Assembly (NCBI GenBank): GCA_001508005.1
Contig: LGEZ01000001.1
Location: 52,392-116,391, forward strand
Reading direction: 5' to 3'
From: Clostridia bacterium 41_269
Lineage (GTDB): Bacteria > Bacillota > DTU086
DNA: 64,000 nucleotides
Part shown: piece by piece, positions 14,959 through 40,214 of the stretch
Numbering within the stretch: position 1 is the first letter of the stretch
Layout of the letters: the number at the start of each line of letters is the position of its first letter
Made by a program: the position numbers and the translations under genes
Notes under the pieces: generated by a model
What the model saw: the letters and a program-made list of their open reading frames with translations, nothing else
Database searches by the model: none
Told to the model about the DNA's origin: nothing

Positions 14959-15016
14959 TGGAAAAAGGCAGTAATTTCCTGATATAAAATATTCAAAAAT
15001 TCCACAAACTGAGTTT

Positions 15017-19253: not shown

Positions 19254-19255
19254 AA

Positions 19256-21303: not shown

Positions 21304-21314
21304 CAAAATTCCCC

Positions 21315-22157
21315 CTAAAATATCTTTTCGGTAAGGTTGCACAGCTCAAAATAGCTGAAGACAGGGCCGTCTTGGCAGACAAACTTAGGCCCAATTTGGC
21401 ACAGCCCGCATTTTGATATTCCGCAGTTCATTCTTCTTTCCATGGAAAGATAAATATCTTTATCTTTAAACCCCATTTCAAGGAGCTTTTGCACCGAAAA
21501 TTTCATCATTATTTCAGGACCGCAAATTAAAACTGCGGTTTCAGTGGGATTGAGGCTTATTTTATCAAACAGTAAAGTGACCACTCCTACGTCGTGTTCC
21601 CATTCCATTCCTTCAGGAACTGAGTCCACCGTCAAAAGAAGCCGGGTATGGGGTATTTTTTTCCACTCATCATATTCCCTTCTATACAGGCAGTCCCCGG
21701 GAGTGCGGGCACCATAAAGAATTTCCATTTTGCCGTAGTTTTCTCTTTCATTTTTTATTGAATAAATAACGGGGCGTAAGGGAGCTAGACCGATGCCTCC
21801 AGCAATAATGAGTATATTTTTATCCTGAATTTTATCCATGGGCCAACCATTACCATAAGGCCCCCTGGCTCCGAAGGTATCGCCTACGCAGAGCTTAGTG
21901 ATTGCACCGGTAACGTTTCCCACCCTGCGTATGGTATGGCTGAAATACTCCTTTTCGCCTGGATCTGAACTTATGGATAAAGGGGCTTCTCCAACCCCCA
22001 GCACTGTAAGCATGTTGAACTGACCTGGCTTAAAGGAAAATTTATTTCGGACTTCATCATCCACAAAGGTAAGCTTTATGGTTTTGGTATCCTTGGTTTC
22101 TTCAGTGACATCAATGATCTTTACCATGGAAGGCATATATGGATTACTACTGCTCAA
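21315..22157 (-). CDS. Hydrogenase gamma subunit (FAD/NAD(P)-binding oxidoreductase with a C-terminal [2Fe-2S] cluster, sulfhydrogenase HydG-like)
   Basis: Ferredoxin-NADP reductase-like fold signatures (LIIAGGIGLAPL) plus CGISKCGLCQIG...C. The probable TTG start overlaps the stop of the beta gene. Confidence 0.7.
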   Translation of the reverse strand: MSSSNPYMPSMVKIIDVTEETKDTKTIKLTFVDDEVRNKFSFKPGQFNMLTVLGVGEAPLSISSDPGEKEYFSHTIRRVGNVTGAITKLCVGDTFGARGPYGNGWPMDKIQDKNILIIAGGIGLAPLRPVIYSIKNERENYGKMEILYGARTPGDCLYRREYDEWKKIPHTRLLLTVDSVPEGMEWEHDVGVVTLLFDKISLNPTETAVLICGPEIMMKFSVQKLLEMGFKDKDIYLSMERRMNCGISKCGLCQIGPKFVCQDGPVFSYFELCNLTEKIF

Positions 22158-24029: not shown

Positions 24030-24288
24030 AGATAATCACCGTGTACCCTTTACTATCTTCAATATTTTATAATTAAATTTTTAATTTGTATATACAATTT
24101 ACCTTAATTTTGATGCACATTTGGTTAAAAAAGTATAACATTTTTATTTAATTATAAGTTTTTAGAAAAAAGAAAGCTGCTTTATTGACATCAGCTCCTA
24201 TGTAAATTTAAATTTAATTAAAAGAATGAATCTCTTTGGAATAAATGGAAAAATCTACAAGAAAGAGCTTTTTGATTGGGGGATAATT

Positions 24289-26097
24289 ATGTCAAAAGAA
24301 AATTTTGAGAATTTAGAAAATGCTCCAATAAAGAACGGGACCGTTAGAATTGAAAAAGGTAAAGTTGTGGTCAAAGATCCCGAAGGAAAAGGAAAACCAG
24401 CGGCCATCGCGCCTGGTTTAAATGTTGATGTATATGTGGATGGAAAGAAGATAACCCAAAAAACGGAAGTTACAACAAAAAACAGAATCGAAGTGGTCCC
24501 GGCTGTTATTCCTCCTCAGCAGGAGATAAAAATTAGAGTTGATAAGGATAAAATGAAAGCATATCTTTCCATAACATACATACCCGGCAGAACATATGAA
24601 ATAGAAGACAGCTGGGAAACAAGGGAGCTGATTATAGAAGCCGTAAAATATAAGGAGCAGCTGTTGGACCCTCCCACTTTGGATGAGATTATGAAAGCTT
24701 TATCAGAGAAGGGGATAGTGTATGGTATAAGCCGAGAAGCCATTGCCGAGGCTGTATCCACCAGGGATGGTCGGGAGGTTGTGGTTGCTTCGGGCGTCCC
24801 TCCTGTCAAAGGAAGAGACGCTTTTATAGAGCTTTGTTATGAAAAGATGTTTAAAAGAAAAAATGAGGATTCCCTTTGGGTTGATACCCTTGATTATGGA
24901 AAAATAATTTCCGTTGAAGCCGGCACGGTAATAGCCAGAAAAATTCCTCCTGAGCCGGGAACCCCGGGGATAAATGTGTTTGGAGAGAAAATAGATCCTC
25001 CTCCACCAAAGGATTTGGAACTCAAAGCTGGAAATGGAGTGGAGATAAGAAACAATGGGCTTGAAGCAGTGGCTCTGATAAATGGTCGCCCGGAAGTCAG
25101 AGGCAGTAATGTATTTATATCGCCTGTACATACGGTTTACAAAGATGTGGGGAAAGAAACGGGTAATATTTATTTTAAAGGGGATGTTGTAATAGAAGGA
25201 AATGTTTCGGACGGTATGACGGTAAAAGCTTCGGGAAATGTTACTGTCAAAGGTTCCGCTGCCCACTGTCATATTTCTGCGGGCGGGAATGTTGTAGTGA
25301 ACAGAAGTGTGATTGGGGGTACCATTAAGGCAGGGGATAAAGGTGTTAAGCTTTACTCCATTAGAGAAAAGCTGCTTTCTTTAAGCAGTGAAGTGGAAAA
25401 AGTGGTGGATGTGGCATGCAGGCTTGCTGAGAATCCAAAATTTATCAGAAGACCTGAGGTGGAAAAATACGGTATTGGAGTTGGGCTGAAGCTTTTATTT
25501 GACACTAAATTTTTTGATATCCAGGAGAAATTTAGGAAATTCTATAAAGAAATAATGGGCATGGAAGAAAATGCAGCGGAAAGATATTTAGGTAAGGGAT
25601 TTGTATTGTTTTTAAATAGGGCTAAGGAAGTAATAACAGGGCGAGGAGCCCTGGAACTCAAATCTGTGGAAAGAATCAAAGGATTTGCTTCTGACTTCAG
25701 AGAAACTGTTGCTGAGGCAGTTGCAGAAATAGAGCGTTCCCTTAAAAACAGGTCCAGCATAACCGTAGGATATGCTCAGCATTCTATTCTGGAGGCTGCA
25801 GGGGATGTGATAATTACAGGCAGGGGTGCCTACAATACAAAAATTTATGCCGGAGGCAATGTGGTGGTTAAAAACGAAAGGGGCTTTTTTAGAGGTGGGG
25901 AAATTGTATCCGAAGGAAGCGTGGAAATATATGAGCTGGGATCTGCAGGGGGTGCAGTGACTTTTGTTTCCGTACCAGCAGGGCAGAAAATAAAATATAC
26001 GGTGGTTCATTCAGGGGTTAGGCTTAAAGTTGGTTCTACTATTAAAAAGTTTGAAATGAAGATAGGGGATTTGGAAGACCAGGAAAGAAGAAAATAA
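24289..26097 (+). CDS. DUF342/FapA-like (flagellar-assembly-protein-A family) protein. The ORF opens at 24226.
   Basis: Repetitive beta-helix-like G-N-V-x-V segments (ISAGGNVVVNRSVIGGTIKAGD; IYAGGNVVVKNERGFFRGGEIVSEGSVEIYELGSAGG) typical of DUF342. A GGGGGA RBS precedes ATG 24289. Confidence 0.55.
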   Translation: MSKENFENLENAPIKNGTVRIEKGKVVVKDPEGKGKPAAIAPGLNVDVYVDGKKITQKTEVTTKNRIEVVPAVIPPQQEIKIRVDKDKMKAYLSITYIPGRTYEIEDSWETRELIIEAVKYKEQLLDPPTLDEIMKALSEKGIVYGISREAIAEAVSTRDGREVVVASGVPPVKGRDAFIELCYEKMFKRKNEDSLWVDTLDYGKIISVEAGTVIARKIPPEPGTPGINVFGEKIDPPPPKDLELKAGNGVEIRNNGLEAVALINGRPEVRGSNVFISPVHTVYKDVGKETGNIYFKGDVVIEGNVSDGMTVKASGNVTVKGSAAHCHISAGGNVVVNRSVIGGTIKAGDKGVKLYSIREKLLSLSSEVEKVVDVACRLAENPKFIRRPEVEKYGIGVGLKLLFDTKFFDIQEKFRKFYKEIMGMEENAAERYLGKGFVLFLNRAKEVITGRGALELKSVERIKGFASDFRETVAEAVAEIERSLKNRSSITVGYAQHSILEAAGDVIITGRGAYNTKIYAGGNVVVKNERGFFRGGEIVSEGSVEIYELGSAGGAVTFVSVPAGQKIKYTVVHSGVRLKVGSTIKKFEMKIGDLEDQERRK

Positions 26098-26127
26098 CTC
26101 CGGAGAAGTCCGGAGTTATTTCTTTTT
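26095..26127. terminator. Bidirectional rho-independent terminator
   Basis: TAACTCCGGA-gaagt-CCGGAGTTA followed by TTTCTTTTT, between convergent genes. Confidence 0.7.
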
Positions 26128-27189
26128 CAATTCTTCTACCCTTTTTATAATAACCTGGGTTATTTCATTTAATACGTCCTGCCCCTGACCTCCTCTAAGG
26201 GTCACAGGATTACCGTCATCGCTTTTCTCACGGATTTCAGGCACCAGGGGTATTCGCCCCAGTATGGGGGCATTAAGGCTTTTAGCCATTCCTTCAGTTT
26301 CCCCTTTGCCGAAAATCCTGTATTCTTTACCGCAGTTGGGGCAGGTAAAAAAGGACATGTTTTCCACTATACCCAGAATTTTAACGTTTACCTCTTTGGC
26401 CATAAATCCTATCCTTCCTGCAATATGAGAAGCCGATGCCTGAGGCGTGGTAATTACCAGAAGAAATGAGTTGGGAAGCATATTCATTACGCTTAAAGGT
26501 GCATCTCCTGTTCCCGGCGGGAGGTCTACAAAGAGATAGTCCAGATTTCCCCAATCCACTTCCAGGATAAACTGCTTCAGCACCCCACCTATAACAGGAC
26601 CTCTCCATATAATGGGCCTGTCCCCATTATCTATAAAACTGCCCACAGATATGACTTTTACTCCGTTTCTTTCCAATGGTATCATTTTATTGTTTCTTCC
26701 CTGAACCCTTAAACCCTCCAGTCCCACTAGGCGGGGAATGCTGAAACCATAAAAATCAGCATCCAGTATTCCCACATTAAAGCCCAGCTTTCCTGCGGCA
26801 AAGGCAAAATTTGCGGTTAAGGTTGATTTTCCAACTCCTCCCTTACCGCTGCCCACCAGAACCACATTTGTATTTTTGAAAACCTGGGCTATCTTTTCCA
26901 TATCCAGATTGAAGAATATTCTCTTTTTCATCTCAGGGGACATTTCACCAAAAATAACTTCTACCTCTTTTATCCCTTCAATTTCTAAAACTGCCTGCTC
27001 CACATCAGATTTAATTTTGTTTTTTAAAGGGCATCCCTTTGTGGTAAGGACAATTTTTATCTTAGCTGAACCTCCCTCTGCCTCCACTTCTTCCACCATA
27101 CCCAACTCAACTAAACTTTTTTTAAGCTCAGGATCCTGAACCTTTTCCAAAGCTTTATAAATTTTTTCTTTTAAATCCATAGAAGTCAC
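26116..27189 (-). CDS. apbC: Mrp/NBP35-family Fe-S cluster carrier ATPase (ApbC) with an N-terminal DUF59/MIP18 domain
   Basis: Deviant Walker A GKGGVGKST, the CPNC Fe-S motif, and an N-terminal DUF59 (KVQDPELKKSLVELGMV). Confidence 0.85.
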   Translation of the reverse strand: MTSMDLKEKIYKALEKVQDPELKKSLVELGMVEEVEAEGGSAKIKIVLTTKGCPLKNKIKSDVEQAVLEIEGIKEVEVIFGEMSPEMKKRIFFNLDMEKIAQVFKNTNVVLVGSGKGGVGKSTLTANFAFAAGKLGFNVGILDADFYGFSIPRLVGLEGLRVQGRNNKMIPLERNGVKVISVGSFIDNGDRPIIWRGPVIGGVLKQFILEVDWGNLDYLFVDLPPGTGDAPLSVMNMLPNSFLLVITTPQASASHIAGRIGFMAKEVNVKILGIVENMSFFTCPNCGKEYRIFGKGETEGMAKSLNAPILGRIPLVPEIREKSDDGNPVTLRGGQGQDVLNEITQVIIKRVEELKKK

Positions 27190-27410: not shown

Positions 27411-27439
27411 TTGTTATTGACTGGCATCTGTGCTATAAT
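27411..27439 (+). promoter_or_regulatory. Sigma-A-type promoter for degS
   Basis: TTGTTA-N17-tgcTATAAT (extended -10) sits 30 nt upstream of the degS start. Confidence 0.5.
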
Positions 27440-27468
27440 CAGGGTATGGAATAGAGGTGGCTAAAATA

Positions 27469-28614
27469 ATGTTGGATATAAATGTTCTTGACAAGATATT
27501 GAGGGAAACTGTAGAAAATATAAGAAAAAGCCAGGAACAGATTTTCAGCATTGCGGAAAATGCTCGGGAGGAATGTGAGCGCGTAAGGCTTGAACTGGAA
27601 GATGTCAAACAGAAAACATCTTTGGTTATTGAACAAGTAGACAGCTTGGAAAAAAGGGAAAAACTGGCTCGAATCAGATTGGCCCAGGTAAGCAAAAATT
27701 TTAACAAATACGGAGAAGAGGACATTAAAAATACTTATGAGAATGCCAAAAATCTTCAGATAGAGCTGGCACTTTTGAGAGAAAAAGAAAAGCAGCTAAA
27801 GGAAAAGCGATACGAGCTTGAAGTGCGCTATAGAAGACTTAAAAAAACCGTTGAAAAGGCTGAAAATCTTATTTCCCAGATAGGGATTGCCCTTGATTTC
27901 TTGGAAAACAATTTAGAAAATGTATGGGAAGAGATAGAGAAGCTTCAGGAAAGGGAAAAAACGGTTTATGCAATAATAAGGGCCCAGGAGGAAGAAAGGC
28001 TTCGCATAGCCAGGGAAATTCATGATGGTCCCGCTCAATCCCTAGCTAATATGGTAATGCAAGCTGAATATTGTCAGAAACTTCTGGAAATACGACCGGA
28101 AGATGCTGTAAAAGAGCTTGCTCTTCTTAAAGAAACCGCAAGGGCAAATCTTGAAAGCATTAGGAAAATAATTTTTGCTTTGAGGCCCATGGATCTTGAC
28201 GACCTTGGCCTTGTACCTGCGGTCAAAAGATTTTTAAATGAATTAGGCTGCAGCAGTGGTTTAGTTGTGGAGTTCAAATTTGTGGGACGAGACTGCAGAT
28301 ATTCATCCGCGATTGAGGTTGCGGTTTTTAGAATTATTCAAGAGGCTGTTAATAACGCGGTTAAGCACTCAAAAGCCTCGACCTTGAGGGTGGTTTTGGA
28401 AACCCAGCCTTCTATGATTGCGGCGATTATAAGAGATGATGGTATTGGATTTGATGAGAGCAATATCAAAGAAGACAGCTACGGCATAAAAGGAATGCGT
28501 GAGCGCACAGCTCTTTTGAACGGAGATATAAAAATCAGCAGCTGGCCCGGGAGGGGGACAGAAATAATGGTTAAAATTCCCGTACAGGAGGAGGAGCTTT
28601 GTGGAGCCAATTAG
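27469..28614 (+). CDS. degS: Cytoplasmic sensor histidine kinase DegS (HisKA_3 class)
   Basis: No TM segment. N-terminal coiled coil. H-box REIHDGPAQSLANMVMQAEY. HATPase_c motifs. Paired with a NarL-type response regulator. Confidence 0.8.
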   Translation: MLDINVLDKILRETVENIRKSQEQIFSIAENAREECERVRLELEDVKQKTSLVIEQVDSLEKREKLARIRLAQVSKNFNKYGEEDIKNTYENAKNLQIELALLREKEKQLKEKRYELEVRYRRLKKTVEKAENLISQIGIALDFLENNLENVWEEIEKLQEREKTVYAIIRAQEEERLRIAREIHDGPAQSLANMVMQAEYCQKLLEIRPEDAVKELALLKETARANLESIRKIIFALRPMDLDDLGLVPAVKRFLNELGCSSGLVVEFKFVGRDCRYSSAIEVAVFRIIQEAVNNAVKHSKASTLRVVLETQPSMIAAIIRDDGIGFDESNIKEDSYGIKGMRERTALLNGDIKISSWPGRGTEIMVKIPVQEEELCGAN

Positions 28615-29251
28615 GGTTTTTGTTGTTGATGATCACCCCCTGGTCAGAAAAGGGATATTAAAGATTTTGAGCTTGGAAAAGGAATTTGAAATAGTAGGAG
28701 AAGCCGGTACTGGAGAGGAAGCGTTAAGGCTGATAAAGGAGGCTAAACCGGATGTAATTCTTCTTGATCTCAATCTTCCCGATATAACAGGGATTGAAGT
28801 ATGTAGGCAGATAAAAAAGGTGTACCCTGAGGGAAGGGTTATTGCCCTTACTATTTACGATGACGAGACGCACGTTATTGAAAGCGTAAAAGCTGGGGTT
28901 ATTGGTTATTTGCCCAAAGATGTGGAACCGGATACATTTATAGAAGCTGTAAAATTTGCTGCTAATGGCAGATCCTACTTTCACCCAAGCATAGCGGGTA
29001 AAGTCATTAATGACTACGAGAGGCTCTGTACAAGTCTTGAGGCAGGCCGAAAGAGCAGAAGTCTTCTTACTGCCAGGGAAATTGAAGTGTTGTCCTTGGC
29101 CGCGAAGGGTTATACGAACAAAAATATAGCAAAGGAGCTTTTTATTAGCGAAAAAACCGTTAAAAACCATATGACAAATATTTTTAGAAAATTGGAGGTT
29201 AAGGATAGGACGGAAGCGGTGGTTTATGCCATACGGGAAAGGTTGATTTAA
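28601..29251 (+). CDS. degU: Response regulator DegU (REC plus LuxR/NarL HTH)
   Basis: REC domain (VFVVDDHPL...DLNLPD) and C-terminal LuxR HTH (LTAREIEVLSLAAKGYTNKNIAKELFISEKTVKNH). Confidence 0.8.
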   Translation: MEPIRVFVVDDHPLVRKGILKILSLEKEFEIVGEAGTGEEALRLIKEAKPDVILLDLNLPDITGIEVCRQIKKVYPEGRVIALTIYDDETHVIESVKAGVIGYLPKDVEPDTFIEAVKFAANGRSYFHPSIAGKVINDYERLCTSLEAGRKSRSLLTAREIEVLSLAAKGYTNKNIAKELFISEKTVKNHMTNIFRKLEVKDRTEAVVYAIRERLI

Positions 29252-29285
29252 AAGTATTTTAAAGATATAAATTTGACACATAAAT

Positions 29286-29329
29286 GGGACTTTGTTCTTC
29301 AAATGGGAACAAAGTCCCATTTTGTTTTT
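29286..29329 (+). terminator. Strong rho-independent terminator after degU
   Basis: GGGACTTTGTTC-ttcaaatg-GGAACAAAGTCCC followed by ATTTTGTTTTT. Confidence 0.85.
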
Positions 29330-29428
29330 AGGATATTTGCTGCTTAAAAACGGTAAAACTGTCGGATTTTCGGTTTTTTTATAAGATGCTAAATTTAAAT
29401 CAACAAGACTGCCGGGGGGTGGATTTTA

Positions 29429-29602
29429 ATGCTGAACATTTTAAAGAGATTGTGGGTTGAAGAGGAAGGGCAGGGTTTAAGTGAGTACGGTTTAATTTTA
29501 GCCCTAGTTGCCATAGCGGTTGTAGCTGTTCTGGGACTTTTGGGAGGCAACCTTAGTAATATATTTGATCAAATTGCAAGTAAACTTAATATTGGCGGCT
29601 GA
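29429..29602 (+). CDS. flp: Flp-family type IVb pilin (Tad pilus major subunit), 57 aa
   Basis: The translation is MLNILKRLWVEEEGQGLSEYGLILALVAIAVVAVLGLLGGNL..., containing the Flp motif (G/XXXXEY prepilin-peptidase site followed by a hydrophobic helix). A GGGGGGTGG RBS is present. Absent from the ORF track because it is under 60 aa. Confidence 0.8.
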   Translation: MLNILKRLWVEEEGQGLSEYGLILALVAIAVVAVLGLLGGNLSNIFDQIASKLNIGG

Positions 29603-29640
29603 TGTTGAATATAAGTATCACTTTTTCATACTATCCTGCC

Positions 29641-29696
29641 TTATTATGGCCAGCAGCTGCTTAGAAAAAATACATAACCGCTGCTGGCCATAATAA
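29641..29696 (+). promoter_or_regulatory. Perfect 17-bp inverted repeat (hairpin) between the flp pilin gene and tadV; a candidate attenuator or processing site
   Basis: TTATTATGGCCAGCAGC, a 22-nt loop, then GCTGCTGGCCATAATAA. No T-tract follows. Confidence 0.6.
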
Positions 29697-29702
29697 GCGA
29701 AA

Positions 29703-30254
29703 GTGGTGATTGATGTGTTGTTTCTTAATACAGTTTTAATATTTATGCTTTTAATTTCGCTCTACACAGACATTGTAGAGCGAAAAATTTATAACTGGAC
29801 CACCATTCCTGCTGCTGTTTTGGGAGTGATCCTAAATTTTCTTGCCGACGGTGCTCCAGGGCTTAAAACAAGCCTCATGGGGCTTTTAACGGGGCTGGCA
29901 GTTTTTCTTCTGCCGTTTTTGTTGGGAGGAATGGGAGCGGGAGATGTTAAGCTGATGGGAGCAATTGGGGCTTTAAAAGGTCCCTTTTTCGTTTTTCAGG
30001 TAGCCCTTTATTCCGCCGTTGCTGGGGGCATAATTGCCTTGGCAGTCCTTGTTTATCAAAGGGAACTCGGTGCAGCGTTAAAGAGGATAAGAACTGCGTT
30101 TATACTGCTGTTTTCTGGAAGTTTTTGCTGTAGGGGATTACAAAATCAATTGGAAGTTACCGATGCTGGTCGCAGTTCATTTCCTTATGCTTTGGCAATT
30201 GCCAGCGGAATATTAACAGCTTTTGCAGTGGGGGGAGGTCCATGGCTGCCTTAA
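29703..30254 (+). CDS. Prepilin peptidase TadV/CpaA (A24 family)
   Basis: Polytopic membrane protein with the catalytic-Asp context LISLYTDIVERKIYNW and a G-rich second motif. It immediately follows flp. Confidence 0.75.
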   Translation: MVIDVLFLNTVLIFMLLISLYTDIVERKIYNWTTIPAAVLGVILNFLADGAPGLKTSLMGLLTGLAVFLLPFLLGGMGAGDVKLMGAIGALKGPFFVFQVALYSAVAGGIIALAVLVYQRELGAALKRIRTAFILLFSGSFCCRGLQNQLEVTDAGRSSFPYALAIASGILTAFAVGGGPWLP

Positions 30255-30640
30255 GATTTTTTGCCAGAGATTGCAGAGGTCAAGCCCTTGTTGAGCTGGC
30301 AATGGTAATTCCCATACTCTTAATGCTTCTGTTTGGAGTAATCGAATTTGGTCGCATATTCAATGCTTACCTGATGGTAAATCAAGCATCCAGAGAGGGT
30401 GCCCGAATAGCTGCTGTGGGAGGCAGTGATGAAGAAATAACCATGACGGTTGAAAACTTCTTAGCGCCCCTTGAAACTCAAAAAGTAAAAATTCTGATAG
30501 AACCCCAGGAAGAAAGAATAAGCGGGGAGGGAGTTAGTGTTACTGTTGAATATCAAGTTGATATTATAGCGCCTATTATTTCCAGCATAGTTCCCGACCC
30601 CTTTAATGTTTCTGCAACTACAGTTATGAGGGTGGAATAA
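30242..30640 (+). CDS. TadE-like minor pilin / pseudopilin
   Basis: The N-terminus QALVELAMVIPILLMLLFGVIEFGRIF is the TadE motif. Confidence 0.7.
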   Translation: MAALRFFARDCRGQALVELAMVIPILLMLLFGVIEFGRIFNAYLMVNQASREGARIAAVGGSDEEITMTVENFLAPLETQKVKILIEPQEERISGEGVSVTVEYQVDIIAPIISSIVPDPFNVSATTVMRVE

Positions 30641-30653
30641 AGGATAGGGGCTG

Positions 30654-31595
30654 GTGGTTAAAGTGCCTAAGGCAGTTAGGAAGCTTATAAGTGAAGAAAA
30701 GGGCAGTGCTGTTGTGGTTTTGGCTTTGGCTATGGTTGCCCTTATAGGATTTGCTGCCTTGGTAATAGATGTAGGATTGCTGTTTGCCGAACGTACAAAG
30801 ATGCTTGCCGCAGCGGATGCAAGTGCCATGGCAGGGGTACAGGATATTTTTTCCTCGGAGCAAAAAGCGGAGGTGTCTGCCGAAGAGTACATTGAAAAAA
30901 ATGGTTTTGCTTCGTCTTATTTTGAAATAAATGCTGATGCTGAAGAAAGGACAGTTGCAGTGAAGGGGAAAAAACTTGTCTCACTGTTTTTTGCACGGAT
31001 TTTTGATGAAGAAGCAGCTTTTGTATCTGCAGAAGCAAAAGCTCGTGCGGAGGGGCTTGTCAAGGCATCAGGGGTTGTCCCTTTGGGCATAGAGGAACAG
31101 CCCCTTGTAAAGGGGCAGCTATATACGTTAAAAATTGCTGCTCCTCCCACAGTTAGAGGGGGAACCTTTGGCGCTCTCTCCCTTGGGGGTACAGGGGCAG
31201 ACAGATACAGGGAGAATTTGAAATATGGGTATGACAAGCCAATTTCGGTAGGAGATATCATTGACACGGAAACAGGAAACATGGCTAACCCCACAAGAAC
31301 GGCAGTGGAATATCGAATGCAAAGCTGCAACCATGTTCCCCAGTGCACCCATGAACATTACGAAAGAGGCTGTCCGCGTATAGTAATAGTTCCAGTTTAT
31401 GAGCCCTATTTGATTGAGGGGCAGCAGTTAAAAAAAGTGGTCGTAAAAGGGTTTGCTGCTTTTCTTCTGGATGGACAGACTAAGGTTGGAACGGATTGCT
31501 ATATAAGGGGATATTTTATTGATTATGTCTTTAAGGGAGAAACTGATGATACCCAAGGAGATTATGGAGCTTATGGAGTTAAGCTTATCCAATAG
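30654..31595 (+). CDS. TadG/TadE-like pilus assembly protein
   Basis: N-terminal EKGSAVVVLALAMVALIGFAALVIDVGLLF, of the TadE/G family, followed by a larger extracellular domain. Confidence 0.6.
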   Translation: MVKVPKAVRKLISEEKGSAVVVLALAMVALIGFAALVIDVGLLFAERTKMLAAADASAMAGVQDIFSSEQKAEVSAEEYIEKNGFASSYFEINADAEERTVAVKGKKLVSLFFARIFDEEAAFVSAEAKARAEGLVKASGVVPLGIEEQPLVKGQLYTLKIAAPPTVRGGTFGALSLGGTGADRYRENLKYGYDKPISVGDIIDTETGNMANPTRTAVEYRMQSCNHVPQCTHEHYERGCPRIVIVPVYEPYLIEGQQLKKVVVKGFAAFLLDGQTKVGTDCYIRGYFIDYVFKGETDDTQGDYGAYGVKLIQ

Positions 31596-31630
31596 GGGAG
31601 CCCAAAAGTAGAAATGGAGGCATATCTGCC

Positions 31631-32359
31631 ATGGGTGGGAGAAAAATTTTAATTTTTGCAGTTTTTTTAAGTCTCGTCACAGCAGGAAGTATTTATTATT
31701 ATTTAATACAGTTAAAAACGGGAGCAGGTGATAGTGATTATAAGACCGTGATAGTGGCAGCGGAAGATGTCCCAAAAAATACCTTAATAAAAAGGGAAAT
31801 GCTAAAAAAAATCAGGATTCCAGGTGAGTACGTCGATCCCAATGCTGTAACAAATATTGGAGAAGTGGTGGGGAAAATATCTTCTGTGCCCATTTTCAGG
31901 GGGCAGCAGATAAACAGAAAAGTTCTTGTTGCCATGGGAGATTACAGCAAAGGGCTCTCTTATAGAGTGCCTCAAGGTAAGAGGGCTGTATCGGTGGCGG
32001 TTAACGAGGTTTCCGGGGTGTCAGGACTGATTATTCCAGGTGATCGAGTAGATGTTGTTGCTACATTAGATATTGGCAGCGGTCAGTATGATATATCTCA
32101 GACGGGGTTTGTTTTGCAAAATGTTGAAGTGCTTGCTGTGGGGAAAAAGCTTGATGTTGAACAGGAGAATTTAGGGGAAAAAGCGGAAGGCAGCAGTGTT
32201 GAAAAAACAGTAACTTTAGCGGTTATTCCGAAGGAAGCTCAGTCGCTGGTGCTTGCTTCCGAAAAGGGAGTTATAAGGCTTCTCTTAAGATCACCAGTGG
32301 ATAAGGGAAGGGTAAACATAAATGAATTGCGCTTACAGGACTTTATTACCAGGAGGTGA
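31631..32359 (+). CDS. cpaB: Flp pilus assembly protein CpaB/RcpC (SAF domain)
   Basis: Signal anchor plus a SAF-like domain (KTVIVAAEDVPKNTLIKREML). Position within the tad operon. Confidence 0.7.
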   Translation: MGGRKILIFAVFLSLVTAGSIYYYLIQLKTGAGDSDYKTVIVAAEDVPKNTLIKREMLKKIRIPGEYVDPNAVTNIGEVVGKISSVPIFRGQQINRKVLVAMGDYSKGLSYRVPQGKRAVSVAVNEVSGVSGLIIPGDRVDVVATLDIGSGQYDISQTGFVLQNVEVLAVGKKLDVEQENLGEKAEGSSVEKTVTLAVIPKEAQSLVLASEKGVIRLLLRSPVDKGRVNINELRLQDFITRR

Positions 32360-32364
32360 GAGGG

Positions 32365-33552
32365 ATGCCCGTAAAGGTACTTATAGTAGATGACGTTGCG
32401 GAAACCAGGGATAACGTAAAAAGGCTGCTCAGCTTGGAACCTGATATTCAGGTTGTAGGTGAAGCTTCTAACGGCAGGGAGGCTGTTAGTGAGGTTGCAA
32501 GGCTTCAGCCAGATATAGTTCTCATGGATATAAACATGCCCATTATGGACGGTATATCCGCTACTGAGCAGATATGCCTTCAGAAATCCGGCGCTTCTGT
32601 CATAATTATGTCAGTTCAGGGGGAAGTTGAATATTTAAAAAAAGCAATGCTTGCCGGAGCAAGGGATTATGTTGTAAAGCCCTTTTCCAATGATGAGCTT
32701 GTGGATGCTATCAAACGTGTTTACAACCTTGAGATGAAAAAACGTAACGGCATTATTCGCAGAGCTGTTGATAGTGAACCCCGAATAATATCTGTATTTG
32801 GAACTAAAGGCGGTGTTGGAAAAACAACAGTTGCAGTAAATTTGGCTATTGCTTTGAAGGAAATTACCAACACCGAAGTTGCCCTTGTGGATTTTGACCT
32901 TCAGTTTGGTGATGTGGCTGCTGCTTTGAATATCCTTCCTCGCCGGACAATTGCAGAATTGGTTCAGGAAACGGTAGAGTTTGATTTGGGGCTTTTGGAA
33001 AGCTACATGCTCACTCACAAACAAAGTGGGGTAAGGGTTTTGTGTTCACCTATTAAACCTGAACATTCTGAATTGGTTACACAAAACCATGCGGAGCAGA
33101 TTTTAAAACTACTTAAAAAATCATATAAGTTCGTTATTGTTGATACTCCTTCTTATTTTTCAGATCCGTGTCTTGCTTCGCTGGAAATAAGCAGTCAAAT
33201 TCTAATGGTTGTCACTCCCGATTTGTTGGCGCTGAAAAATGCGAAGTTGGCTCTTAATATAATGGAATCTTTAAAAATGAAAGACAAGGTTGAATTTATT
33301 CTCAATAAAGCTTCCGATGCAACGGGCATTAAGCTTGAAGATATAGAACATGCTCTGGACAAAAGGATATGGGCAAGCATATCTACTAACGTCAAAACCG
33401 CTACAGGGGCGATAAATAAAGGTATTCCCTTTGTAATAAGTCAGGCTGGTTCAAATCTTTCAGAGGATGTTTTTAATATGGCAAGGTTGTTAGTTCAAGG
33501 AAAACCTGCACAAAAGACTCCAAAAGTGCGACTGCTTACGGGAATTTTTTAA
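32365..33552 (+). CDS. cpaE: CpaE/TadZ-type pilus assembly ATPase with an N-terminal response-regulator receiver (REC) domain
   Basis: REC (VLIVDDVAETRD...DINMPIMDG) fused to a ParA/MinD-like deviant Walker A (GTKGGVGKTT). A GGAGGTGAGAGGG RBS precedes ATG 32365. Confidence 0.75.
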   Translation: MPVKVLIVDDVAETRDNVKRLLSLEPDIQVVGEASNGREAVSEVARLQPDIVLMDINMPIMDGISATEQICLQKSGASVIIMSVQGEVEYLKKAMLAGARDYVVKPFSNDELVDAIKRVYNLEMKKRNGIIRRAVDSEPRIISVFGTKGGVGKTTVAVNLAIALKEITNTEVALVDFDLQFGDVAAALNILPRRTIAELVQETVEFDLGLLESYMLTHKQSGVRVLCSPIKPEHSELVTQNHAEQILKLLKKSYKFVIVDTPSYFSDPCLASLEISSQILMVVTPDLLALKNAKLALNIMESLKMKDKVEFILNKASDATGIKLEDIEHALDKRIWASISTNVKTATGAINKGIPFVISQAGSNLSEDVFNMARLLVQGKPAQKTPKVRLLTGIF

Positions 33553-33570
33553 AGAACGGGGGTGGCTTTT

Positions 33571-34938
33571 ATGTCCCTGCTTCAGAGACTTGAAAAGGAA
33601 AAGGGATCAACGGTCATTGCGGCAGAAAGCAAAGTACAGGAAATATCTCCTGATCCATACCGTCAGTTAAAAACTAAGGTTCATTATAGGTTGATCGAAG
33701 AGCTGGAAAGCAGTTCCGAACAAATGGAAGAAAACAAAGAAGAGATTGAGGATCGGGTCAGGAAGTTAGCACTGGAAATTTTGGAACAGGAGGCCGATTT
33801 TGTCCCCCGCAGTGATAAGTATAGAATAGTTGAGGAGATGATTGATGAGGTTTTGGGATATGGGCCCATAACTCCCTTAATAAACGACGACACCATAACG
33901 GAAATCATGGTTAATGGTCCTTATGACATTTATGTGGAAAGAAAAGGAAAAATTGAGAAAGTTAAGGCTAGCTTCAGGGACAATGAACATGTCTTGACTA
34001 TTATAGAGAAAATTGTCGCTCCCCTTGGGCGCCGCATTGATGAGAGTATGCCCATGGTTGATGCCAGGCTTCCGGACGGCTCGAGAGTCAATGCAATAAT
34101 TCCTCCTTTGTCCTTAATAGGTCCTTGCATAACCGTAAGAAAGTTCTCAAAGGATCCCTATACTATGAAAGATCTTATAAAATTTGGGACGCTGACATCA
34201 GAAATGGCAAAGCTTCTTGAGGGGTGCGTAAAATCTAGGCTCAATATAATTGTGTCTGGGGGTACTGGAGCGGGGAAAACCACCCTTTTGAACTGCCTAT
34301 CTGCTTATATTCCCGCTGATGAAAGAATTATTACCATTGAGGATGCTGCAGAACTTCAGCTAAATCAGCCTCATGTAGTGCCTTTGGAGACCAGGCCTCC
34401 TAACATTGAAGGCAAAGGAGCGGTTACAATAAGGGATCTTGTTCGCAATGCCCTGCGTATGCGCCCCAATAGGATCGTTGTGGGAGAAGTAAGGGGAGGA
34501 GAAGCTTTGGACATGCTGCAAGCAATGAATACGGGGCATGATGGTTCAATTACTACGGGTCACGCCAATTCTCCCAGAGATATGCTGTCAAGGTTGGAAA
34601 CTATGGTTCTTATGGCGGGCATGGATCTTCCTGTGAGGGCTATGAGGGAGCAGATTGCTGGTGCCATAGATATTATTGTTCAGGTAAGCCGCTTCCGTGA
34701 CGGCTCCAGAAAGGTTACCCATATTACCGAGGTTTTGGGTCTGGAAGGAGATACCATAGTTACTCAGGATATTTTCCGCTTTGTGCAGGAAGGGATTGAT
34801 CGCGAAGGCAGGATAGTTGGTAAATTTACTGCCACGGGAATCGTTCCGAAATTCAAAGAAAAACTTATAAATAACGGATTTGTTATTCCCGACGATTTGT
34901 TTGTTCCCCTTAACGGTATTAGGGGTGAGTATTCATGA
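33571..34938 (+). CDS. cpaF: Tad secretion ATPase CpaF/TadA (VirB11/GspE superfamily)
   Basis: Walker [10 protein letters not shown], with Asp and His boxes. The RBS GGGGGTGG is 5 nt before ATG 33571. Confidence 0.85.
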
Positions 34939-35891
34939 ATCTTTGGGTGCCCGTTGCCTTAACCTTTGTTACCACTGCATTATGGGTGCTTTTTGTCCAT
35001 GACCTTACAACAAAAAGACGCAGAGAAATTATAAAAAGAATAAATGAGCAGATAGATTATTACGGAAAACAGCAAACCAAGAAAAAAACCTCAGCTACCT
35101 TTAAAGAAGTTCTTCGGCAAATAAGCCGAATATTTGCGGCTCGCAGAATTGCCGTCAAAGTTGAGAGCAGGCTGGTAAAAGCTGGTATTCCTCTTAAAGG
35201 AGAAGAAGGTTTGACGTTGTGGCTTCTTTCAGCAGTGGGTTTTGGTTTTGCCGGCTTTATGATGACGGGAGATTTTGCCTATGCTGTTCTTTTAGGAATT
35301 TTGGGTTCGATCCTGCCTTGGCTTTTTGTAAACAGCTCTATCAATAAGCGCCTTAAAAAACTGGATGCCCAATTAGGGAGTGCCCTTACAATTATGTCCA
35401 ATTCTCTCCGTGCGGGCTTCAGCTTTCTGCAGACTGTAGAATTGGTGAGCAAAGAGATGCCCGATCCCATTGCTTCTGAATTTCGCCGCATGCTTAGGGA
35501 AATGCATTTGGGAACTTCTACCGAACAGGCTTTGATTAATTTAAGTAAAAGGATCGGAAGCAAGGATATTGACCTTGTAGTGACTGCGGTACTTATTCAA
35601 AGGCAGGTGGGGGGCAATTTAGCTGAAGTGCTGGATAATATATCAAATACTATAAGAGAAAGGATCCGTGTGGCAGGAGAAGTAAAAACTCTAACTGCCC
35701 AGGGAAGAATTTCAGGAATAATAATCGGACTTCTTCCGGTTTTTATTGCTTTGGTGCTTTTTATAATCAATAGGGAATATATTATTTCACTGTTTACTGA
35801 TAGAAGGGGAGTAATAATGCTGTCTGTGGGTTTGATTCTGCAGGTTTTAGGGTTGCTGGTAATAAGAAGGATAGTAGATATAAAGCTTTGA
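34935..35891 (+). CDS. tadB: Tad pilus inner-membrane platform protein TadB (GspF-like)
   Basis: T2SSF-like domain with TM helices, translationally coupled to cpaF. Confidence 0.75.
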   Translation: MNLWVPVALTFVTTALWVLFVHDLTTKRRREIIKRINEQIDYYGKQQTKKKTSATFKEVLRQISRIFAARRIAVKVESRLVKAGIPLKGEEGLTLWLLSAVGFGFAGFMMTGDFAYAVLLGILGSILPWLFVNSSINKRLKKLDAQLGSALTIMSNSLRAGFSFLQTVELVSKEMPDPIASEFRRMLREMHLGTSTEQALINLSKRIGSKDIDLVVTAVLIQRQVGGNLAEVLDNISNTIRERIRVAGEVKTLTAQGRISGIIIGLLPVFIALVLFIINREYIISLFTDRRGVIMLSVGLILQVLGLLVIRRIVDIKL

Positions 35892-35961
35892 GAAAAGGAT
35901 TGTAACCCCTTGTAAAAGGAGTTGTTTGCGATGGAATTTAATTTACTAGTAATTTTTTTTC

Positions 35962-36867
35962 TTGCTTTTCTCAGTACTTTTTTTTTTAACGATGGCTCTT
36001 TATGAGATTTTTGTTCAAGATAGAATGGTTGTAAAACACAGAATCATGGAATATGTAAGCAAAGAAGTGGTAGAAGATGCAGTTAAGGAAGAATTGAGCA
36101 AACCTTTAAAGGAAAGGATTTTTAAACCGTTCATTAAAAAACTGTCAGAGGTATTTGAAAGGTTTTTGCCTAGGGGATCTCAGGAGAATTTAAGAGAAAA
36201 GCTAATTATGGCTGGCAATCCCGGCAATTTGAGCCCCAATGAATTTTATACAATAAGATATACGATTACTTTCCTTTTTGGAATTGGAGCGGCTTTGGCA
36301 GGGAGGTATTTCCACTTCAATATTTTTAGAACCGGTGCACTATTTGTGCTTTTTGCTGCAGTGGGCTATATGCTTCCTGAATTGTATTTAATTAGAAGGA
36401 AACAAAGAAGGGCTCTTGAGATTGCTAAGACTTTACCTGACGTGCTTGATCTCCTTACTGTCAGTGTGGAAGCTGGCCTTGGCTTTGACGCTGCGTTGGC
36501 AAAGGTAGTGGAAAAAATGGACGGTATAATTTCCATTGAATTTTCCCGGGTGCTTCAGGAAATCAGAATGGGAAAGCCGCGGAGAGAAGCTTTGAGAGAT
36601 CTCAGCAGAAGGACGGGGGCAGAGGATCTGAATAATTTTATAAGTTCCTTGATTCAAGCAGATCAGCTGGGGGTCAGCATCGCAAATGTTTTAAGGATTC
36701 AGTCAAGGGAAATAAGGCAGAAGAGGCGGCAAATGGCTGAAGAAAAAGCAATGAAAGCTCCCGTCAAAATGGTTATCCCCCTTGTTTTGTTTATTTTCCC
36801 TACAGTATTTATAGTTGTTCTTGGTCCCGCCCTTTTGAGGATTTTCGATGTATTCCTTGCTAGATAA
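35962..36867 (+). CDS. tadC: Tad pilus inner-membrane platform protein TadC (GspF-like). Its true start may be ATG 35931 if the T10 run at 35978-35987 is really T11.
   Basis: T2SSF-like domain. The TTG start at 35962 lacks an RBS, whereas ATG 35931 has AAAGGAG 9 nt upstream but terminates after a T10 run. Confidence 0.7.
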   Translation: MLFSVLFFLTMALYEIFVQDRMVVKHRIMEYVSKEVVEDAVKEELSKPLKERIFKPFIKKLSEVFERFLPRGSQENLREKLIMAGNPGNLSPNEFYTIRYTITFLFGIGAALAGRYFHFNIFRTGALFVLFAAVGYMLPELYLIRRKQRRALEIAKTLPDVLDLLTVSVEAGLGFDAALAKVVEKMDGIISIEFSRVLQEIRMGKPRREALRDLSRRTGAEDLNNFISSLIQADQLGVSIANVLRIQSREIRQKRRQMAEEKAMKAPVKMVIPLVLFIFPTVFIVVLGPALLRIFDVFLAR

Positions 36868-37064
36868 AGTTTTTTTCCTTTGTTTTAACTTCTGTCTTAG
36901 CCAAGACTAATTTTTTATCATTAAAGGATTTTTTTGCAAAAAATAGAAATATGTAAAATGTTTTAAGCCTTCCAAAGACAGCAGCCCTTATTAATTTTTT
37001 CACGGCAGACTTTGGCTGTCTTAAATACCTTCTTTTTTGTTTTCTGAGGAGGGGGTAGGGTATT

Positions 37065-37324
37065 TGAAATCCAGCTCTGGCAGGTTTAAAAGCTGCTATC
37101 AGTGTGTAGCTCTGCTCAGCTGTTTTCCTTATACGAAACTGGATAGGGAGGAGGCGAAAGAAATAGCAGCTTCCTGCACAAAGCCCTACAAGGGCATTAC
37201 AACGGATGTTGTTGAAGTTAAGGGACAGAGTAGAGGCATGAGCCGTAAAAAGGCGTTCAAATATTCCCAGCAGGGTAAAGCCAAATGGATAGGCAGGGAC
37301 CGCATTGAACTCTACTTGGATTAA
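37065..37324 (+). CDS. Hypothetical small basic protein with a CxxC motif. TTG start.
   Basis: A GAGGAGGGGG RBS precedes TTG 37065. 86 aa, CYQC...C. No family recognised. Confidence 0.35.
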
Positions 37325-37344
37325 CCAGGGGAGGGGGAATAAAT

Positions 37345-39564
37345 TTGGAAGAGGGTAAAATTTTATCCTTTTCGGGTCTTAGGGGAAAACTGACGGCTGT
37401 TTTTTTGCTGACTGCCATTGTTCCCCTAGTTGTATTAGCAGTCATAGGATTAAGGGAATATTCCAAAAACTTGACTTCGGAAATAATGAAGGGATACGAA
37501 GAAAGGGCTGAAGGGATATTCAACTGCATAGAAATGACCATCAATGAAGGCAGGAAAACCGTGGAGGTAATTGCAGCTTCGCCCCAAATAAGGGACTGCC
37601 TTACGGCTGCGGCAGGTGCTGCAGAGGAGGCGGGGCTGACCAGCATGGGCGTTGAAGAGATTGAGAGTGCCATGAAGGGGAAAAGCCTGGATGTTCCCGG
37701 AAGGAGCAGCGTAAATCTTTATCTTAAAGAAATAGTCGACACGTCAAAAGGAAAGTTTTCAGAACTCTTCATCACTGGTAAATACGGCAATACCGTTGCT
37801 TTTTCAGGCAGGACTTCCGACTTTGTTCAAAAGGATGAAGAATGGTGGCAGGAGGCTTTTTCAAAAGGCGAATATGTGGGCAATGTGGAGTATGACGATT
37901 CTGCTGGTACTTATGCAGTGCGCATTGCCCTTGCCATAAAGGATGCAGGGGGATCAACCATCGGGGTTATCAGCAGTGCTTTCAACTATTCCGTAATATT
38001 GGCTGTGCTGGATGAAGCTGTGGCGGACATTACCCAGGGGGAAGCTTTTTTGGTGGATCATCAGGGAATGCTCCTGGGGGATACATCTTCCGGACATAAA
38101 GATATTTTAACCAGAAATCTTTTAGAAGAAAAAGGCTCCCTAGGGGAGCAGGTTCTCAAAAATTCAAAGGAAAAAGGTTCCCTTATTTTAAAGGGTAAAG
38201 GCGGAGAAGAATACATCACAGGTTTTGTTAAGAAAAAAGCTGTCAGTGGGTTTGAAGATTTAAACTGGGCAGCGGTGGTTTCCGTTCCCACAAAAGTTGT
38301 TCTTGCACCTGTGGCAGCTATGCGCAATATGGTAATAATTTTAGCATTGGTTTTTGCTGTATTGATCTTTATTGCTGGAAACCTGCTCATCCGCAGAATA
38401 ACCGATCCCATAGTTAAACTGGCAGAAGAAGCCGAAAGGATCAGCAGGGGAGATTTTACAGCTGCCCTTTCAGTGGAAGACCTGGGCAGTGATGAACTGG
38501 GTATTCTTGCCCGATCTTTTGGCGCAATGCTGGAAAATATAAAAGATATAATAATGCGGACCAGGGAAATGGCAGAAAAAACTGCCGGTTCAGCCCGGGA
38601 CCTAAGCGCAGCTGCGGAAGAAAATACCAGAGGGGCTGAGGAGATTGCTGTCACTGTTCAGGAAATTTCCCAGTCTGCTTCTAAGCAGAACGAGATGGCT
38701 GAAAACGTTTTGAATTCCATCAACCAGAGGGCTGAATTTATAAATCAGCTTGCTTTAAGTGCTAAGTCCGTTTCAGATTCTGCAGAGGAAGCAGCAGGTA
38801 AAGCGGAAACGGGTAACAAATCCATAGCCACCGCTGTAAGGCAGATGAATTCCATAAACAGAGTGGTAAAGCAGTCTGCTGATGAAGTTTTTCAGCTGGG
38901 AGAAAGGGCTAAACATATCGGAAAAATTGTTGATACCATTACCGACATAGCTGAGCAGACCAATCTTCTTGCTTTGAATGCTGCCATTGAAGCGGCTAGG
39001 GCTGGAGAGCAGGGCAGGGGATTTGCTGTGGTAGCGGACGAAGTGCGTAAGCTTGCAGAGGAATCCTCTCAGGCTGCTGAAGAGATAGGCAGGCTTATCA
39101 ATGAGATCCAGAAGGATATTCTGGAAGCTGTGGAAGCTATTGAATCAGGAATTGGAGAAGTGGAAACGGGCATGAAGGCTATGGGAGAGGCTGGAAAAGC
39201 CTTCCAGGAAATTCGCAGATCCATTAAAAATATATCAGAGCAGGCGCGGATGTCTGCCGAGGCAGCTCAGGAGCTGGATCAGGGAAGTGCGCTGTTCCAG
39301 GAAGCTGTGGAGGGTGTGGTTAAATTTACTCGGGAGACTGCTGCAGGCACTCAGAATGTGGCAGCGGTTACAGAGGAACAGACTGCTTCTATGGAGGAAG
39401 TTGCTTCTGCTGCCAATACCCTTTCTGAAATGGCAGAAAACCTCATAAAATTTCTTGAGGAGTTTAAGCTTCAGGTCCATGAAATTGAAGAAAGTGAGTC
39501 AGAAAGCGTGGAGAATAAAGAAACATCTCAAGATTCAAATGGTATAAACGAAAATCATAATTAG
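37345..39564 (+). CDS. Methyl-accepting chemotaxis protein (Cache-type periplasmic sensor, HAMP, MA domain)
   Basis: Two TM segments flank a roughly 280-aa sensor. A HAMP domain is followed by a conserved signalling domain ([32 protein letters not shown]). Confidence 0.85.
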
Positions 39565-39698
39565 GCTTGATATAGAAGATTATGAGGTAAAAATAAAATC
39601 TGTGTAAAAACGACAGTATGGGCAGGAAATAAAAAATATCAGTGGAAAAGGTTAACTGCCCTCTATTTTTTAAACTAATTGAAAGAGGTGTATGGGGA

Positions 39699-40214
39699 AT
39701 GGAGGAAAAAAAGAAAGATACAGCGGGAGAAGAGCAGCTGGTTGTTTTTACTCTGGCAAATGAAACCTACGCCATAGATATTTCCGCGGTTAACGAAATA
39801 ATAAGAATGCAGGATATAACTGAAGTTCCAAGAACCCCGGATTTTGTAGAGGGGGTAATCAACTTAAGGGGAAGAATTGTTCCTGTTATAGACTTAAGAA
39901 AGCGCTTTGGACTTGAAGCAGCAGAGAAAACCCAGGCTTCCAGAATCATTGTGGTGGAAATGGATGATGTCACTGTGGGCATGATAGTGGATTCCGTTTC
40001 CGAAGTGCTGAGGCTTCCCAAAGAAAACATTGAGCCCACTCCCCCAATGGTTTCAGGGGTAGACTCCGCATATCTTAGGGGTGTTGGAAAGTGGAACGAC
40101 CGCCTTATAATACTCCTTGATGTCAATAAAGTTCTGTATAAAGATGAAAAAGAAGAGATGAATCAGGCTTTAGAAGAAGCGTCTGCTGCTGTGGATGACG
40201 GTGGTGGCAGGTAA
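39699..40214 (+). CDS. cheW: Chemotaxis coupling protein CheW
   Basis: CheW domain (QLVVFTLANETYAIDISAVNEII...VINLRGRIVPVIDLRKRFG). An AAGAGGTG RBS sits 8 nt before ATG 39699. Confidence 0.85.
   Translation: MEEKKKDTAGEEQLVVFTLANETYAIDISAVNEIIRMQDITEVPRTPDFVEGVINLRGRIVPVIDLRKRFGLEAAEKTQASRIIVVEMDDVTVGMIVDSVSEVLRLPKENIEPTPPMVSGVDSAYLRGVGKWNDRLIILLDVNKVLYKDEKEEMNQALEEASAAVDDGGGR

Follow-up and report, generated by a model that had tools for sequence, protein, structure and literature searches.

A DegS-DegU-like two-component system beside a secretin-less Tad pilus operon with a canonical-receiver CpaE: a probable regulatory and structural module of monoderm bacteria

Genes at the locus

We analyzed a window of 64,000 nucleotides from Clostridia bacterium 41_269 (contig LGEZ01000001.1, positions 52,392 to 116,391 of the forward strand), in which the genes of a DegS-DegU-like two-component system (TCS) directly precede an operon for a Tad (type IVc) pilus. 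Genes were called from an open reading frame (ORF) list, with a Pfam scan of all locus genes and an NCBIfam scan of the first ten (Table 1). We found that the CpaE protein of this operon carries a canonical receiver (REC) domain, and that DegS/DegU-like pairs recur beside tad clusters in two phyla. Taken together, these comparisons suggest, with a probability of about 0.6, that DegS, DegU and a separately transcribed, secretin-less Tad operon with a functional-receiver CpaE form a conserved regulatory and structural module of monoderms.

The degS gene is preceded by a promoter-like site whose -35 element begins at position 27411. Its product matched the Pfam families DegS (PF05384, 9.5e-54, model positions 1-157 of 159), HisKA_3 (5e-19) and HATPase_c (1.3e-13), and its H189 DGPAQ box is invariant. 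We found no transmembrane segment in this protein: the highest 19-residue Kyte-Doolittle mean was 1.17, compared with 2.5-3.1 in the membrane proteins of the locus, indicating a cytoplasmic kinase as in Bacillus. The start of degU overlaps degS by 14 nt, and DegU matched Response_reg (5.5e-30) and GerE (1.9e-24), with D10, D11, D56 and the lysine all present.

A hairpin at 29282-29322 with an 18-bp stem (-26.4 kcal/mol, z = -5.3 against shuffled sequence), followed by TTTTGTTTTT, ends about 100 nt upstream of the flp start codon at 29429. The sequence-only reading of this stretch had placed DegS-DegU directly upstream of an flp-tad locus with a strong terminator in between; we recovered this terminator and every gene which that reading had named. 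Such a strong terminator indicates that degSU and flp-tad are separate transcription units, so that any coupling would act in trans, via phosphorylated DegU (DegU~P).

The nine genes flp, tadV, tadE, tadG, cpaB, REC-cpaE, cpaF, tadB and tadC run from 29429 to 36867. CpaF scored 350.6 against the TadA-family model TIGR03819, slightly below the cut-off of 373. No annotated locus gene matched the secretin (RcpA/CpaC), RcpB or TadD families in the above scans. The absence of these outer-membrane Tad parts is as expected for a monoderm and is the same in related loci. The locus had been called complete, which holds for a monoderm gene set but not in the sense of a locus with secretin and TadD. A second hairpin, without a T-run, lies in the gap between flp and tadV; it is likely mRNA-stabilizing, or attenuating and part-terminating, and would set the ratio of pilin to machinery.

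Table 1. Features of the degSU-tad locus in the window, and riboswitch aptamers in related loci
Feature	Position	Strand	Support
Sigma-70-like promoter 5' of degS, TTGTTA-17-TATAAT, TG-extended	27411..27439	+	Consensus match only
degS, DegS-family cytoplasmic histidine kinase, 385 aa, His189	27457..28614	+	DegS N-domain, HisKA_3, HATPase_c
degU, DegU-family response regulator, REC (D56) and GerE/LuxR helix-turn-helix	28601..29251	+	Pfam, residues
Intrinsic terminator of degSU, 18-bp stem and T-run	29282..29332	+	Folding, z = -5.3
Candidate DegU operator, degenerate palindrome copy TGGGAACAAAGTCCCA	29304..29319	.	3 mismatches, 125 nt before flp ATG
flp, Flp-type prepilin, 57 aa	29429..29602	+	Flp_Fap 3e-8; cleavage motif G/QGLSEY (...EEEG/QGLSEYG...)
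Stem-loop in flp/tadV gap, perfect 18-bp stem, no T-run	29638..29697	+	z = -5.6
tadV/cpaA, prepilin peptidase, 183 aa	29703..30254	+	Peptidase_A24 3.3e-18
tadE, minor pilin	30242..30640	+	Pfam/NCBIfam
tadG-like protein	30654..31595	+	Tad domain PF13400
cpaB/rcpC	31631..32359	+	SAF and RcpC; TIGR03177 6.4e-48
REC-CpaE/TadZ	32356..33552	+	Response_reg and MinD/ParA ATPase
cpaF/tadA, motor ATPase	33562..34938	+	T2SSE 3.7e-67
tadB, platform protein	34935..35891	+	T2SSF
tadC, platform protein	35962..36867	+	T2SSF
Cyclic di-GMP-I aptamers	L001 6740-6826; L084 6819-6902; L085 5314-5398, 5817-5903		Rfam

CpaE carries a canonical receiver domain

CpaE consists of a receiver (aa 6-120), a long alpha5 linker, a MinD/ParA ATPase (aa 143-381) and a basic-amphipathic C-terminal tail. 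Response_reg matched over its full length (4.6e-29, model 1-111 of 111), and the Pfam/NCBIfam scan found no DNA-binding domain in the protein, in agreement with the earlier description of an N-terminal REC without DNA-binding output. The receiver is canonical, with D12, D13, D58, S86 and K108 and the switch aromatic Y105. The Walker A motif KGGVGKT is intact and includes the deviant Walker A signature lysine K151.

To judge this receiver we compared it with its relatives. The residues are invariant in 33 aligned CpaE relatives, in which position 86 is S or T, and the quintet together with Y/F105 is invariant in all 80 full-length genome homologues (80/80). In the reciprocal test, the 11 complete cpaE genes in tad clusters of DegS-anchored loci all encoded a canonical REC (11/11). 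These homologues span two phyla at 34-72% overall identity. The sequence-only reading had made its receiver claim hang on the Asp/Lys/Thr triad, and we found Asp/Asp/Asp/Ser-Thr/Lys intact throughout the three sets. Since the receiver residues are intact in the window and in all of these homologues, CpaE is very probably a real phospho-acceptor.

Proteins of this type are common. A database search gave 4358 matches at E <= 1e-10, with PF00072 in all of the best 120, and the taxa with a canonical-REC CpaE include Thermincola, Zhaonella, Phosphitispora, Desulfitibacter and Syntrophaceticus. Many Chloroflexota REC-CpaE proteins (L008-L080; L numbers designate retrieved loci) have C, R, V, A, T or S in place of the Walker A lysine of GK[ST]; they retain the signature lysine and every receiver residue. 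The Bacillota homologues keep KGGVGKT.

An AlphaFold2 model of CpaE, with a predicted local distance difference test (pLDDT) value of 86.9, showed the REC domain, the long alpha5 linker and a MinD fold. The modeled receiver can be superposed at 1.1-1.4 A on CheY of T. maritima, to which it is 42-43% identical, and the ATPase domain matches MinD, FleN and FlhG structures with target-normalized template-modeling scores of about 0.71-0.85. The only two-domain match in PDB was E. rectale TadZ (3FKQ; Foldseek E = 1.1e-12, 396 columns). A PDB sequence search with CpaE returned only CheY, MinD and FleN, and did not retrieve 3FKQ at E < 1e-3. The tail KVRLLTGIF has a hydrophobic moment of 0.43, compared with 0.45 for the MinD membrane-targeting helix, in a region where the model has pLDDT < 50; a C-terminal KKGLLxxLFG tail is common to CpaE relatives.

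In the literature, characterized TadZ proteins have an atypical, non-phosphorylatable receiver domain (ARD), which is used for polar localization. Thus, the window CpaE has the TadZ architecture but not an ARD. For TadZ/CpaE, an N-terminal domain resembling a receiver has been described before in its atypical form, and the canonical form is abundant in databases; in the open-access text that we searched, no paper characterizing a canonical-REC CpaE was found.

DegS/DegU-like pairs recur beside tad clusters in two phyla

We retrieved 80 genome loci, which are among the matches listed, through REC-CpaE, and mapped the window proteins onto them by tblastn and custom-built hidden Markov models (HMMs). 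A locus was informative when it contained at least 6 kb upstream of cpaE, as did 53 of the 80. Of the 80 loci, 41 have a DegS/DegU-like pair next to the tad cluster, as do 35 of the 53 informative ones, Chloroflexota included; the informative Bacillota loci all had it (10/10). Exact-protein look-ups of close homologues revealed DegS(PF05384)-DegU-flp-tad in 6/6 further informative loci (L081, L083-L087). The kinase aligned over its full length, DegS N-domain included, in Bacillota, and from about residue 25-60 onward in Anaerolineae, where the gene order is degU-degS-flp.

The degSU-tad arrangement occupies at least three chromosomal contexts. It follows FapA-Mrp in the lineage of the window. 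In Thermincola and Phosphitispora it is preceded by a tagO-like gene and PGM and followed by DUF192-GGDEF-GGDEF-comFA-comFC, and in Zhaonella and Desulfitibacter it comes after dnaG-sigA-trmK-NIF3-RNaseH. The pair is upstream of tad in most loci, downstream in L006/L007, and in L090/L091 tad is on the opposite strand. That the pair and tad stay close despite rearrangement, in one phylum as in the other, points to functional coupling. On the evidence of these differing contexts and gene orders in Bacillota and Chloroflexota, we consider that the neighborhood is not accidental.

Several further features of these loci were observed. In a Chloroflexia subgroup (L014, L017, L018, L020, L025, L027, L032, L034, L036, L068), degS-degU is followed by a second DegS-like gene, which covers only HMM positions ~20-300, apparently without most of the HATPase, and precedes multiple flp genes. 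A DUF192 gene lies 3' of tadC in L084-L087 (~14460-15020; Thermincola, Phosphitispora, Zhaonella, Desulfitibacter); no gene in the tadC-MCP interval of the window matches DUF192 (MCP, methyl-accepting chemotaxis protein), and the sole sizeable ORF there (37037-37324) has no Pfam match. In the window, L081 and L083, a gene of the FapA/DUF342 ("flagellar assembly protein A") family (24226-26097, + strand in the window) lies directly 5' of degS. Only in the window and L081 are the two separated by a gene for an Mrp/ApbC Fe-S ATPase (26116-27189, - strand in the window).

A candidate DegU operator upstream of flp

By inspection, we found the palindrome TAGGAC-N4-GTCCTA to be recurrent in degU-flp spacers. 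Dimers of NarL/GerE regulators could plausibly bind an inverted repeat of this 6-4-6 form. At one mismatch or fewer, 12 copies occur in the 2.4 Mb of retrieved loci, compared with 0-2 in shuffles. Nine of the 12 are located between degU and flp, 103-330 nt upstream of the flp ATG and in both phyla (Chloroflexota: L027), and a tenth, in L059, closely follows degS and precedes the tad genes. Copies with two mismatches were found 5' of flp (L009, L014, L025, L087) and 5' of degS (e.g. L002, L035, L084). No copy at one mismatch or fewer is in a locus without the TCS, a distribution for which the TCS-less loci (n = 18) are too few for a test. We regard TAGGAC-N4-GTCCTA as a candidate, a predicted DegU operator.

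The window contains the degenerate copy TGGGAACAAAGTCCCA, whose distance from flp (-125) is typical and which makes up the 3' arm of the terminator; every one of its deviations is found in other loci too. This copy would be credible only through its position and the family-wide enrichment.

Between the TAGGAC box and flp, loci of Carboxydocellales, Thermincola and Phosphitispora have cyclic di-GMP (c-di-GMP)-I riboswitches scoring 69-88 bits, and this position (L001, L084, L085) puts the box in the promoter region. In L084 and L085, tadC is followed by two GGDEF genes. An Rfam scan of the window gave no match, and the window lacks the c-di-GMP riboswitch seen ahead of flp in relatives.

DegS-anchored loci and the late flagellar junction

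We also retrieved 80 metagenome loci via DegS. The closest relatives among these listed loci (44-51% identity) are mostly tad-linked, in 14 full-length loci and L125. In 12 more distant loci, degS-degU is followed after ~4.5 kb by flgN-flgK-fliW, with no tad, and 11 loci have neither tad nor an flgN/flgK neighbor. In L108, a ComFA-like helicase, a ComFC-like protein, a zinc-ribbon protein and FlgM are encoded between degS-degU and flgN-flgK. This is the order of B. subtilis, where degSU lies just upstream of the comF-flgM region. In the window the order is degSU-tad-che-flgM-flgN-flgK-flgL-fliW. L108 and L084 bridge the tad-linked and the comF-flgM-linked degSU arrangements.

L149 (1-7722 against window 29252-37345) is a near relative of the window, with DegU 77% and CheW 91% identical, from which a block of ~7.6 kb, from the terminator through tadC, is missing. 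Judged from this comparison, tad behaves as a presence/absence cassette at the degU-proximal junction.

In a neighbor-joining tree of DegS, which is crude (no outgroup root, no support values, no Bacillus reference) and for which L001-L087 had been selected via CpaE, every Chloroflexota kinase is tad-linked. Bacillota kinases with a tad linkage are spread over several clades; the flgK-linked loci all group in a single one. The tree fits a tad-linked ancestral state, as a compatible topology rather than as proof.

Just 5' of the MCP gene, the window has an ORF of 95 aa (37037-37324, + strand) with a TTG start and no Pfam match. It is kept in L149 at the DNA and protein level, and a short gene is found at the same place in L081/L082. 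Between fliW and the flagellin gene (60950-62221) there is a gene for a 2056-aa protein with 16 IPT/TIG repeats and fn3 (47883-54053, + strand), followed by two genes for SLH-domain proteins (54077-58183, + strand). These may be giant surface adhesin and S-layer genes inside the late flagellar region. The upstream flanks contain AddB/AddA helicase-nuclease genes (5928-13170) and a NiFe-hydrogenase cluster (17754-23229, - strand), which are unrelated to degSU-tad.

Alternative explanations

Several observations weigh against the proposed module. About 60% of the classifiable DegS-anchored loci have no tad nearby, and 18 of the 53 informative REC-CpaE loci have no DegS/DegU-like pair within ~10 kb while keeping all phospho-residues; both collections were seeded with the pattern itself and hold loci among the matches listed, and these percentages are rough. 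In L149, degU is directly followed by the small conserved ORF and MCP-cheW-cheA-cheB, with no tad. The tad-less degSU loci, L149 included, indicate that DegS-DegU is not exclusively a pilus regulator, and the 18 pair-less loci that the CpaE donor can be encoded elsewhere or be a different kinase. The window palindrome alone is not significant, with 11 matches found and 17.6 expected. The alpha1 specificity positions differ between DegU (L, V, G, K, I) and CpaE (E, T, N, R, L), which does not speak for a shared kinase.

The linkage could reflect synteny only. Here degSU would occupy an old late flagellar and competence position, a mobile tad cluster would have been inserted beside it by chance, and DegSU would be a global regulator that has no particular connection with the pilus. 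The window gene order is as this predicts; so are the degS-degU-comFA-comFC-zinc ribbon-flgM-flgN-flgK order without tad in L108 and 11 other loci, the indel-like behavior of the 7.6-kb block when L149 is compared, and the strong terminator that parts degU from flp. However, the degSU pair accompanies tad into unrelated contexts, such as that after dnaG-sigA in Zhaonella and Desulfitibacter, and it stands with tad in Chloroflexota loci where no comF or flagellar matches occur within the ~10-kb flanks. Moreover, a sequence-conserved palindrome lies between degU and flp in both phyla. We consider synteny by chance to be rather unlikely.

The phospho-donor of CpaE also has to be weighed. The adjacent che system had been suggested, and an MCP-CheW-CheA-CheB cluster (37345-43434) does begin 478 nt after tadC. 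It contains no cheY, and its CheA has a P2 domain, so that phosphorylated CheA might serve the CpaE receiver and place the pilus under chemoreceptor control, like Pil-Chp and type IVa pili. The likeness of the receiver to T. maritima CheY described above agrees with this, and it is slightly nearer to the REC of CheB (36% identity) than to that of DegU (31%), values too close to discriminate between donors. But no MCP, CheW or CheA match adjoins tad in any examined tad locus besides the window and its nearest relatives L081/L082, the cluster persists in L149 without tad, and its continuation into flgM-flgN-flgK-flgL-fliW fits flagellar chemotaxis. The comparison thus leaves the che donor without support, and we regard it as improbable. 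It seems equally doubtful that the receiver is unphosphorylated in vivo and serves for interaction or localization like an ARD, or as a mere phosphate sink. Characterized TadZ proteins do work with such a domain, and the lost Walker A lysine of many Chloroflexota homologues means that parts of CpaE can degenerate; yet the catalytic quintet and the switch aromatic are retained without exception in the full-length homologues that were examined, which come from two phyla and have 34-72% overall identity, as would be expected only if phosphorylation chemistry is used. Two other donor clues were tried. The alpha1 specificity residues, as far as they differ between the two receivers, neither support nor exclude a shared kinase, and kinase-receiver covariation gave no signal because, from one phylum to the other, hardly any variation is seen in the dimerization and histidine phosphotransfer helix (R-x-IHDGPAQSLAN) or in the alpha1 helix of either receiver. 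DegS is the leading candidate donor by co-occurrence, whether loci were collected from CpaE or from DegS. The earlier suggestion of DegS therefore keeps its place as an inference, which the co-occurrence favors and the differing alpha1 positions do not.

Comparison with known systems

The B. subtilis DegS-DegU system has the same architecture, a 385-aa cytoplasmic kinase (DegS N-domain, HisKA_3, HATPase_c) and a NarL/GerE regulator with D56, and lies on the same side of the late flagellar block flgM-flgN-flgK-flgL-fliW. The window differs in having a full Tad operon and a che cluster between degU and flgM; B. subtilis is not known to have a tad locus. The candidate operator TAGGAC-N4-GTCCTA is unlike the DegU sites described in that species. 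The flgM-flgN-flgK-flgL-fliW operon is DegU-regulated in B. subtilis (PMC8849057), where DegS-DegU responds when flagellar rotation is stopped, which is a surface cue (PMC3963450). By analogy, a link from surface contact to an adhesive pilus via DegS-DegU is attractive, though speculative.

The closest functional precedent, with no homology claimed, is PprAB of P. aeruginosa. There, pprA and pprB are located inside the flp-rcp-tad locus and this TCS positively controls flp and the machinery genes (PMC3510237). Both systems encode a TCS with the tad genes, whereas the P. aeruginosa system belongs to a diderm and includes the secretin RcpA and TadD.

The TadZ/CpaE proteins of A. actinomycetemcomitans (TadZ), C. 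crescentus (CpaE) and E. rectale (3FKQ) share with the window protein the slot between cpaB/rcpC and cpaF/tadA and the two-domain plan of a receiver fold and a MinD/ParA ATPase. Characterized TadZ proteins differ in carrying an ARD, whereas the window receiver is canonical, has CheY proteins as its best sequence matches, and makes the TadZ-slot protein a potential second phospho-acceptor. The window CpaE also keeps the full KGGVGKT and a MinD-like basic-amphipathic tail. MinD, FlhG (YlxH) and FleN have the same ATPase fold, and CpaE resembles them in its signature lysine K151 and the MinD-like moment of its tail; unlike CpaE, they have no fused receiver and are regulated by partners (MinE, FliY/FliM, FleQ), not by the phosphorylation proposed here.

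Proposed model and significance

Under the proposed module, DegS would autophosphorylate at His189 on a cytoplasmic or surface-related cue and pass the phosphate to D56 of DegU; the domains are present in both proteins, and the activity is expected from their families. DegU~P would then bind TAGGAC-N4-GTCCTA just 5' of the flp promoter and drive flp-tad transcription, as the conserved position of the box suggests. Phosphorylation of CpaE at D58 may control the ATP-dependent dimerization and membrane association of its MinD-like domain, and thereby when and where the CpaF-TadB-TadC platform assembles; we infer this from the invariant catalytic residues and from how MinD, FlhG and TadZ proteins work. 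A DegS-like kinase is the most likely donor to both receivers on the basis of co-occurrence, so that one kinase with two receivers would switch on pilus transcription and assembly together. As a whole, the interpretation in the sequence-only reading, of pilus machinery that is itself a phospho-relay target, gains from the canonical REC and the recurrent DegSU-tad linkage; its che donor finds no comparative backing and its DegS donor is a candidate.

In open-access text, no paper on this module came up in connection with DegU and Tad/Flp or with REC and CpaE. The literature searched appears to contain no description of the DegSU-tad module, of the operator predicted for it or of how it is placed with respect to degSU-comF-flgM of B. 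subtilis.

The tad cassette lies exactly between degSU and the late flagellar block, which begins with comF-flgM in Thermincola and B. subtilis. We tentatively raise the possibility, itself doubtful, that DegS-DegU arose as a dedicated Tad pilus controller, one kinase with two receivers. Bacilli such as B. subtilis would then have lost tad between degSU and comF-flgM, and the system would have been rewired to a global regulator of motility, biofilm and competence, with the response to stalled flagella a relic of a switch from surface contact to pilus. If true, this would give an evolutionary origin for the DegS-DegU of B. subtilis, a system for which the input signal and the original function have long been obscure. 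DegS-like kinases are tad-linked as far as Chloroflexota.

Tad pili drive adhesion and biofilm formation; how monoderms, Gram-positive bacteria among them, control these pili has hardly been studied. The locus predicts a pilus-specific kinase/regulator pair, a defined operator 5' of flp and a positioning ATPase switched by phosphorylation. Such a phospho-switched ATPase would contrast with the non-phosphorylatable receiver of the characterized TadZ proteins.

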